From: Escherichia coli | GTDB lineage: Bacteria > Pseudomonadota > Gammaproteobacteria > Enterobacterales > Enterobacteriaceae | Strand: one strand, 5' to 3' | Assembly (NCBI RefSeq): GCF_003334765.1 | Contig: NZ_QOWT01000103.1 | Length of the DNA: 729 nt | Shown here: positions 1 through 729 of the stretch, in pieces | Layout: every line of letters begins with the position of its first letter | Numbering within the stretch: the first letter of the stretch is position 1 | Made by a program: the position numbers and the translations under genes | The notes under the pieces: generated by a model | Told to the model about the DNA's origin: nothing | The model's input: only the letters and a program-made list of their open reading frames with translations | The model's database searches: none

Positions 1-267
1 GTGGATGCCGGGCGACAATTATTATCTTCACAGGGGGATGCAATAAGAAATATTGAGGGATTCGCAGATGGCGGGATCGGCATGTCTTTTGATGCAATCA
101 GAGGGGCTTTTTACGATGCAGGAACACGATCAACGACAATGGCGAATAACACAACTGCTATAGGCAAAACCGATGACCTTGGATTCGACGCCTCTCGTGT
201 CGTGCCAACAGCTAATGAAAACCGTCCACGTAACATCGCCTTTAATTATATTGTGAGGGCTGCATAA
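1..267 (+). CDS. Tail fibre protein, C-terminal (distal tip) fragment; 5' end lies outside the window
   Basis: Frame +1 is open from base 1 to a TAA stop at 265-267. The GTG at 1-3 is most likely an internal Val codon, not a start. The 88 translated residues (…NENRPRNIAFNYIVRAA*) are rich in Gly/Ala/Thr/Asn/Asp and contain no His, Cys or Trp, which suits a fibre tip domain. The main support is context: the stop overlaps the start of a recognisable tfa gene, the canonical fibre-then-chaperone order. Family assignment is from context and composition, not a database hit. Confidence 0.65.
   Translation: MDAGRQLLSSQGDAIRNIEGFADGGIGMSFDAIRGAFYDAGTRSTTMANNTTAIGKTDDLGFDASRVVPTANENRPRNIAFNYIVRAA
254..259 (+). 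promoter_or_regulatory. Shine-Dalgarno-like ribosome binding site for tfa, embedded in the 3' end of the fibre gene
   Basis: TGAGGG at 254-259 (core GAGG 255-258) lies 8 nt upstream of the tfa ATG at 267. With the TAATG overlap this fits translational coupling. Confidence 0.5.
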
Positions 268-729
268 TGAAACCTGTTTTTGATGAAAATGGGCTGGCTA
301 CAGTACCGGGTAATATGCGTTGTTTTTATTATGAGGCAGTTACGTATGAATATACTGGCTGGTCTGATGAATATATTAATACTGGCGTAAGTATGCCCGC
401 CTGTTCCACTGGTATTGACCCGGGCGAATACATTCCGGGAAGAGTGGCAGTATTTACGGGTAAGGGATGGAGCCATGAAGAAGACCATCGCAATGAGACT
501 GTTTACTCAACAGAAAATGGCGCAGCTGTTACAGTGGATTATATCGGTGCCATCAAAGACGGTTATGTCACGCTTTCACCGTTAACGCCATACGATAAAT
601 GGGATGGTGAGAAATGGGTGACGGATACCGAGGCACAGCATAGCGCCGCACTAGACGCGGCAGAAGTAAAGCGCCAGTCGCTGATTGATGCTGCAATGGC
701 TTCCATCAGTCTGATTCAGCTGAAATTAC
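267..729 (+). CDS. tfa: Tail fibre assembly protein (Tfa-type chaperone, Caudovirales tail fibre assembly family); 3' end lies outside the window
   Basis: ATG at 267-269 opens frame +3, which stays open for 154 codons to the window edge (last full codon 726-728). My translation is MKPVFDENGLATVPGNMRCFYYEAVTYEYTGWSDEYINTGVSMPACSTGIDPGEYIPGRVAVFTGKGWSHEEDHRNETVYSTENGAAVTVDYIGAIKDGYVTLSPLTPYDKWDGEKWVTDTEAQHSAALDAAEVKRQSLIDAAMASISLIQLKL. From memory, the stretch …VAVF…W…EDHR..TVY…W.G..WV.DTEA… lines up with lambda Tfa (…[26 protein letters not shown]…YQKWNGTAWVKDTEAEK…KKSLMQ…), and the N-terminal VFDEN motif resembles the IVYDEN motif inside P2 gpG and Mu U. A GAGG at 255-258 sits 8 nt upstream of the ATG. 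Confidence 0.85.
   Translation, partial: MKPVFDENGLATVPGNMRCFYYEAVTYEYTGWSDEYINTGVSMPACSTGIDPGEYIPGRVAVFTGKGWSHEEDHRNETVYSTENGAAVTVDYIGAIKDGYVTLSPLTPYDKWDGEKWVTDTEAQHSAALDAAEVKRQSLIDAAMASISLIQLKL

Follow-up and report, generated by a model that had tools for sequence, protein, structure and literature searches.

Tail fibre assembly (Tfa) proteins are reported to follow a common rule: the N-terminal domain, which is not conserved, binds the fibre tip, and multimerisation is driven by a C-terminal domain that is conserved (PMC9608196, citing North et al. 2019). The described systems used here for comparison are the Tfa of phage lambda (orf-194, NP_040605.1), whose fibre/Tfa pair sits outside any invertible segment; TfaE of e14, a cryptic prophage of E. 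coli K-12 (b1156, 200 amino acids (aa)), encoded in the PinE-invertible P segment; gpG of phage P2 with U and U' of phage Mu (175–177 aa); and the gp25 chaperone of cyanophage Pam3. The P segment of e14 is inverted by PinE, PinQ and PinR, and its crossover repeat has been published as TTGGTTTGGGAGAAG (PMC12529663). Here we place among these systems a 729-nucleotide (nt) stretch of Escherichia coli DNA (contig NZ_QOWT01000103.1), hereafter the window, which carries the end of a tail fibre gene and the beginning of a Tfa gene. A first-pass annotation had read this gene as a Tfa without the long N-terminal extension of P2 gpG and Mu U.

As a whole, the window is best explained, with a probability that we put at about 0.93, as the 3' end of a fibre-tip gene followed by the first 154 of the 197 codons of its cognate Tfa gene, of the lambda/e14 type. 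Sequence, profile and context together place the gene in the lambda Tfa / e14 TfaE subfamily, whose members are built from Caudo_TAP_N and Caudo_TAP, and show nothing unusual about it. Because the window ends inside the gene, the full gene was taken from E. coli genomes 99.9% identical to it, specifically from E. coli BE2-5 (locus L001, 8267–8860), where it encodes a protein of 197 aa that RefSeq names 'tail fiber assembly protein' (WP_000805577.1). Recovering this downstream sequence for the total length, and searching with the Caudo_TAP (PF02413) profile, had both been proposed in the first pass. The profile matches the full-length protein at aa 76–193 (model positions 2–128 of 131, E = 7e-25) and the part encoded within the window at E = 8.6e-11. 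The family phrog_105, 'tail fiber assembly', covers aa 1–194 (E = 1.6e-80).

Pairwise comparisons give the same assignment. With lambda Tfa, BLASTP gives 35% identity between aa 10–194 of the window protein and aa 5–190 of the phage protein (E = 1e-32); the alignment with e14 TfaE runs from end to end and reaches 61% (E = 3e-81). The window protein and lambda Tfa are close in length (197 and 194 aa), collinear over aa 5–190 of the latter and alike in Pfam architecture; lambda Tfa differs in having four residues fewer in the FDENG turn (MAFR----MSEQ). The resemblance of the EDHR..TVY and W.G..WV.DTEA segments to lambda Tfa, pointed out in the first pass, is borne out by these BLASTP matches and had if anything been understated.

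The family is large. Relatives at E<=1e-5 number 2077, and the full-length ones among those listed are mostly 195–197 aa long and start with MKPVFDENG or a close variant; among cluster representatives, 1077 match at E<=0.001, many of them 190–210 aa long and collinear from residue 2–5. In precomputed annotation, full-length relatives and lambda Tfa carry both PF28596 (Caudo_TAP_N) and PF02413; PF28596 is absent where family members miss their initial ~45 aa, and PF02413 alone, with no Caudo_TAP_N, is annotated on the P2 gpG family. An alignment of 75 full-length relatives (27–62% identical, 188–218 aa) has the N-terminal consensus x[FL][DN]E[ND]G[FL]A...G.[IV].VY.Y...T.EY.G, preceded by 0–12 residues. 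To judge from this alignment, MKPVFDENGLA is the normal N-terminus of the subfamily, and nothing is missing ahead of it. A search of NCBIfam returned no family for either the fibre open reading frame (ORF) or Tfa.

The window itself consists of two adjacent plus-strand ORFs, fibre tail and then Tfa, and its features are as follows.

1–267, plus strand: C-terminal (receptor-binding tip) cassette of a tail fibre gene, last 88 codons and TAA (translation, PHROG, RefSeq).
267–729, plus strand: Tfa gene of the lambda Tfa / e14 TfaE type, codons 1–154 of 197.
267–434, plus strand: aa 1–56 of Tfa, N-terminal beta-hairpin region, part of Caudo_TAP_N and specific to the lambda type (75-sequence alignment, hhalign).
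435–626, plus strand: aa 57–120 of Tfa, beta-rich core of the N-terminal domain, common to P2 gpG and Mu U (hhalign, MAFFT, AlphaFold2).
627–729, plus strand: aa 121–154 of Tfa, predicted long helix that opens the conserved helical C-terminal domain; the domain runs on to aa 197 (AlphaFold2).
579–729, plus strand: widely shared, highly conserved DNA block, its left edge a mosaic breakpoint (megablast, codon alignment).
217–269, plus strand: conserved junction of fibre tail and Tfa start, second mosaic breakpoint (megablast, comparison with e14).
254–258, plus strand: GAGGG, Shine-Dalgarno-like, 8 nt 5' of the Tfa ATG (sequence reading).

The GTG at position 1 is the edge of the window and not a start codon. 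The 88 residues encoded from there end in ...ENRPRNIAFNYIVRAA, followed by the stop codon TAA at 265–267; the fibre ORF matches PHROG tail-fibre families (phrog_523, for instance, at E = 1.2e-21), and RefSeq labels it 'phage tail protein, missing N-terminus'. Its tail, ...RPRNIAFNYIVRAA, is common to the window, e14 StfE, lambda Stf and the fibre of phage 500465-2. The Tfa start codon, ATG at 267–269, shares its A with the fibre stop codon (TAATG, a 1-nt overlap), so that the protein does begin with MKPVFDEN right at the fibre stop, as the first pass had read. From 267 the frame starts MKPVFDENGLATV, has the opening residues MKPVFDENGLATVPGNMRCFYYEAV... and stays open for 154 codons to the end of the window; both RefSeq and the GenBank annotators of phage SKA5 chose the same start. 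The GAGGG at 254–258 is a plausible ribosome-binding site, as judged from its sequence and position. The same order on the same strand, Tfa directly downstream of the fibre gene, recurs in SKA5, phage 500465-2, e14 and lambda, and the lambda orf-314/tfa pair (L003, 3474) has the same 1-nt stop/start overlap and a fibre tail, NIAFNYIVR, that matches in 12 of 16 residues. The other frames and the opposite strand of the window hold short ORFs only, and scanning the window against Rfam and for promoters, terminators and repeats gave nothing further.

With the subfamily in place, the question of a missing N-terminal extension can be addressed directly. P2 gpG and Mu U were said to carry about 50 residues ahead of their (I/M)V(Y/F)DEN motif, and this is accurate: 50 were found, with IVYDEN at residues 51–56. 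If the MKPVFDEN of the window protein were the equivalent of that motif, the gene would encode a P2 gpG / Mu U-like Tfa in compact form, starting at the motif after loss of the ~50-residue extension. The pairing has some appeal, since KPVFDENGL and KIVYDENNI share 5 of 10 positions, and the score of the N-terminal 15-mer against P2 gpG was reached by just 27 of 2000 shuffles, a result that we call marginal. BLASTP, however, aligns no more than these 10 residues, at a non-significant E of 0.4, and the window protein, with its 197 aa, is longer than P2 gpG and Mu U, which have 175 aa. The first residue of the Caudo_TAP match is 76 in the window protein, 72 in lambda Tfa and 40 in P2 gpG. Furthermore, an FDENG within the first 5–15 residues is the consensus among the 75 lambda-type relatives, and the partner fibre has a tail of the lambda/e14 class and not of the P2/Mu class.

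The profile comparison locates the motif elsewhere. Taken pairwise, aa 59–125 of the window protein against P2 gpG are not significant on their own (137 of 500 shuffles), and only a comparison of profiles resolves the relationship: hhalign, with the 75-sequence profile against a profile of P2 gpG, Mu U and U', gives a probability of 98.9% (E = 2.6e-17) and places aa 57–196 of the window protein on aa 24–175 of P2 gpG, leaving aa 1–56 of the former and 1–23 of the latter unmatched. Ahead of the shared core, the window protein thus has 56 residues and P2 gpG 23, the reverse of what a truncation would give. The P2 IVYDEN falls at about aa 70–76 (EEDHRN) in the hhalign alignment and at aa 78–84 (TVYSTEN) in the MAFFT alignment, in neither case on residues 1–8; because this register differs between the two methods and carries no per-column confidence, we claim only the region of about aa 70–84. 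The longer protein, the collinearity with the lambda type, the position of Caudo_TAP and the profile alignment together mean that no N-terminal extension is missing. Loss of a P2-type extension is accordingly an explanation that we consider extremely improbable, and the claim of the first pass is wrong; the result that by its own account would remove it, full-length collinearity with one known subfamily, was obtained with lambda Tfa, TfaE and phrog_105.

Membership of the P2 gpG / Mu U subfamily as such was considered and rejected: there is no significant full-length similarity, and the M(Q/M)HLKNI... N-terminus of that subfamily is unmatched. The P2/Mu type of partner tail, ...INGTWYN..., was sought on the window fibre and was not found there. 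What P2 gpG and Mu U/U' do have in common with the window protein is a Caudo_TAP core followed by a helical C-terminal domain, and a gene position directly downstream of the fibre gene, which in the case of Mu U/U' lies within an invertible segment. They are unlike it in their different 23-residue N-terminus and lack of Caudo_TAP_N and in the INGTWYN tails of their fibres, and their pairwise similarity to it is not significant (E = 0.4).

Another origin for the N-terminal motif would lie within the protein itself. By eye, VFDENGLATV looks like VYSTENGVAVTV, and AlphaFold2 predicts both the FDENG and the TVYSTENG (aa 78–85) segments to be beta-hairpins, so that the first might be an internal duplicate of the second and Caudo_TAP_N might have arisen by repeat expansion of the core. 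The best local score of residues 2–16 against the rest of Tfa is only 22, however, and was equalled in 235 of 2000 shuffles, which is chance level; we hold an internal duplication to be very unlikely, if marginally less so than the loss of an extension. The reading that we retain is a complete lambda-type Tfa with its normal N-terminus.

The first pass had further suggested a compact or mosaic Tfa, with a variable N-terminal and a conserved C-terminal part. Compact does not describe a protein of 197 aa beside one of 175; mosaic does. Relative to e14 TfaE, identity is 35% over the 104 residues at the N-terminus and 91% over the 93 at the C-terminus. At the DNA level the break is sharp: codon-aligned identity to tfaE rises from 42–64% to 93% at codons ~105–108, that is, at about nt 579 of the window. 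The block from 579 to 729 is 92–97% identical in e14 tfaE, HK97 tfa and Klebsiella, Salmonella and Citrobacter phages, and the junction at 217–269 is 79% identical to e14. By megablast, phage matches fall into three classes: those that cover 1–729, with SKA5 as the only phage (96.8% identity); those that cover 226–729, with several E. coli phages; and those that cover 579–729, with HK97, pro483 and Klebsiella, Salmonella and Citrobacter phages. Among E. coli genomes, 2362 records match the window, and in just 149 of them is at least 80% of it covered. In E. coli genomes, 161 of the 3375 matching places lie on plasmids, which may be P1-like phage-plasmids with an invertible C segment of their own.

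The search of cluster representatives shows the same division in proteins. Some proteins of 100–160 aa share only the C-terminal ~80–100 residues (~90% identity), and others share only the N-terminal ~105–125 residues with the window Tfa. Divergence from lambda Tfa is uniform, at 32% identity in the N-terminal half and 37% in the C-terminal half with no mosaic boundary, which identifies the protein as a plain homologue and not as a chimera of subfamilies. The mosaicism of the window Tfa is therefore real, yet it is a published, general property of Tfa proteins.

An AlphaFold2 model built with the 75-sequence alignment (predicted local distance difference test (pLDDT) score 97.5) contains strands only over aa 1–120 and helices at 121–146, 148–155 and 162–179. 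The invariant residues of the core at aa 57–120 are W68, D73, R75, P105, W112 and W117. As modelled, the window Tfa follows the two-module plan of a beta N-terminal domain and a helical C-terminal domain. It differs from the Tfa of Mu (Mu U; PDB 5YVQ, chain B) in that the Mu protein has helices in its N-terminal domain (PMC9608196), whereas the model is all-beta up to residue 120. The Pam3 chaperone gp25 (PDB 7YPX) has 3% identity and a weak structural score, and offers an analogy of plan but no demonstrated homology of the N-terminal domain.

The fibre partner suggests how such a protein might work. Tails of the form NIAFN(Y/F)(I/L)VR pair with lambda-type Tfa in the window, the SKA5 cassette, lambda, e14 StfE and 500465-2, a correlation drawn here from four pairs and not from a curated definition; INGTWYN tails pair with P2 gpG, Mu U and Mu U', and tails ending ...SYISIGR or ...WIAIGY pair with short TfaP-type proteins. 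Fibre-tail class thus co-varies with Tfa class, three with three. Lambdoid, Mu-like and P2-like phages all conserve the junction of fibre tail and Tfa start as a unit.

By analogy with the work on Mu Tfa and Pam3 gp25, the putative function of the protein would be to bind the fibre C-terminus, a step needed for fibre trimerisation. Translation of the fibre tip and of Tfa may be coupled through the TAATG overlap. The all-beta N-terminal domain (aa 1 to ~120) would then bind the fibre encoded upstream at its C-terminal tip or at the PRNIAFNYIVRAA tail, and the helical C-terminal domain (aa 121–197) would multimerise. Three fibre C-termini would in this way be brought into register, and folding of the trimer would start at the distal end.

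In the intact phages SKA5, 500465-2 and e14, the fibre/Tfa pair is one of two convergent cassettes within a Pin/Gin-type invertible segment of about 1.8 kilobases (kb). In SKA5 (L002) the pair lies beside a DNA invertase gene (CDS 5166–5729), and the window-type pair, the distal cassette of the invertible segment, faces a second, short Tfa and the active side tail fibre gene in convergent orientation. Inverted repeats at 5796–5815 and 7619–7638, which are 20 nt long, 90% complementary and contain TTGGTTTGGGAGAAG, bound a 1.8 kb segment with the two convergent fibre-tip/Tfa pairs. When the SKA5 inversion was simulated, the constant N-terminus of Stf came into frame with the window-type tip, giving a 251-aa fibre that ends in NIAFNYIVRAA. 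In e14 of K-12 the order is stfP-tfaP, convergent with tfaE-stfE, followed by pinE. In 500465-2 a complete 501-aa fibre is followed by the window-type Tfa, which is thus in the expressed position, and the alternate cassette and an invertase lie downstream. Flipping by the serine invertase would join only one fibre-tip/Tfa pair at a time to the constant fibre N-terminus.

The 500465-2 phage (L011, 2037–4135) is a P2-like member of the Peduoviridae, and its Tfa is of the lambda type (91% identity over 196 aa) and not of the gpG type. In all three phages the two convergent Tfa genes overlap by 29 base pairs (bp) at their 3' ends (SKA5, 6832–6860; e14, L006, 5518–5546; 500465-2, L011, 4107–4135), and through this overlap the same piece of DNA specifies the protein tail ..DVIWPELPEA on one strand and the tail ..DIEWPTPPAVQAR on the other.

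The e14 system is like the window in having an stfE-type tip with the common tail followed by tfa; in intact relatives the pair is also convergent with a short TfaP-type gene and adjoined by an invertase. Over and above the divergent N-terminal 104 residues and the break at nt 579, it differs in chromosomal site: the genomes closest to the window hold a fragment of the segment at sbcB-dacD.

The state of the locus in these closest genomes is different from that in the phages. Megablast finds a 99.9%-identical copy of the whole window in many complete E. coli chromosomes; no match at 100% was found in E. coli genomes. The only difference is at position 523 of the window (codon 86), which reads GCA (Ala) here and GTA (Val) in the E. 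coli genomes; Ala at codon 86 also occurs in SKA5 and in the cluster representative P0001. Three unrelated E. coli strains (L001, L007 and L008) carry the same prophage remnant of about 6.7 kb between sbcB and dacD. In BE2-5 (L001, 4612–9794), as in the other two, this remnant contains an integrase, yfdT/yfdR-like genes and a truncated fibre gene; beyond the fibre/Tfa fragment it has no tail genes. Invertase and intact fibre are absent from all three 99.9%-identical loci, and at BE2-5, the one locus searched, no crossover site was found with up to 3 mismatches. The window itself stops short of the places where such sites would lie. Only 886 bp (L001, 7958–8843) are homologous to the SKA5 segment. 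The pair in the closest genomes is therefore an 886-bp relic of the invertible segment inside a decayed prophage. If a genome of this kind is the source of the window, the gene there is probably a relic as well.

Homology to the phage copies ends 17 nt before the Tfa stop (L001, 8843–8860), and the protein ends in WPALYEV in place of the usual WPELPEA; this ending results from a deletion junction inside the last Tfa codons. On the left, the other deletion junction is spanned by a 95-aa 'hypothetical protein' of the RefSeq annotation (WP_000141754.1; L001, 7759–8046, reaching positions 1–46 of the window), which overlaps the fibre fragment in a different frame. Its ORF is probably a product of the junction and not a real gene.

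How far the gene is still functional is a separate matter, and we see the balance as even between an active gene and a non-functional relic, that is, an intact-looking ORF with no complete fibre to fold, which persists by recent common descent. The shared sbcB-dacD remnant with its truncated fibre and missing invertase, the absence of a crossover site from BE2-5, the restriction of SKA5 homology to L001 7958–8843 and the deletion junction that altered the last residues all speak for a relic, as does a published result on the homologue TfaE, whose overproduction did not defend against phage T2 (PMC12529663). On the other hand, the window is one base off these E. coli genomes, none of which matches it at 100%, its Tfa ORF is intact, and the same gene occupies the expressed position behind a complete fibre in 500465-2. 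The question bears on current activity only and leaves the identity of the gene unchanged. The orphan but intact Tfa, 99.9% identical across many E. coli strains, might also be retained as something other than a mere relic, acting in trans on the fibres of co-resident prophages or serving as a donor for recombination by which N-terminal domains are paired with new tips. This speculative reading draws on the near-identity of the C-terminal block to other Tfa genes, and we rate it as very improbable.

Several observations weigh against the identification of the gene as a cognate, lambda/e14-type Tfa with the function described, and are best considered together. The Tfa of 500465-2 is 91% identical to that of the window, yet the last ~75 residues of its fibre, apart from the PRNIAFN..VRA tail, are only ~40% identical to those of the window fibre, so that near-identical Tfa N-terminal domains serve quite different fibre tips. 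Judged from these sequences, the tip specificity of the N-terminal domain is looser than a lock-and-key fit, or rests mainly on the conserved PRNIAFN..VRA tail. PF28596 was read from the precomputed annotation of relatives, in particular of the 96%-identical representative P0001, and not from this exact sequence. A PDB sequence search with the full Tfa gave no match at E<=1, and a Foldseek search of the PDB with the full-length model gave nothing at E<=0.001, Mu Tfa (5YVQ_B) not being recovered. The subfamily has neither an experiment nor a solved structure to its name. Finally, the gene stands as an orphan in the nearest genomes, where the described function may no longer be exercised.

For the family, the gene is already annotated and belongs to a known and abundant group, and it adds nothing new. 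The by-products of the analysis, namely the mosaic junctions at nt ~226 and ~579, the classes of Tfa and fibre tail, and the case of 500465-2, restate the known exchange of fibre modules. The apparent truncation is a case in which a short motif of the Tfa proteins of P2 and Mu was placed in the wrong register on a member of another subfamily, and the importance of the finding lies in little beyond correct annotation.

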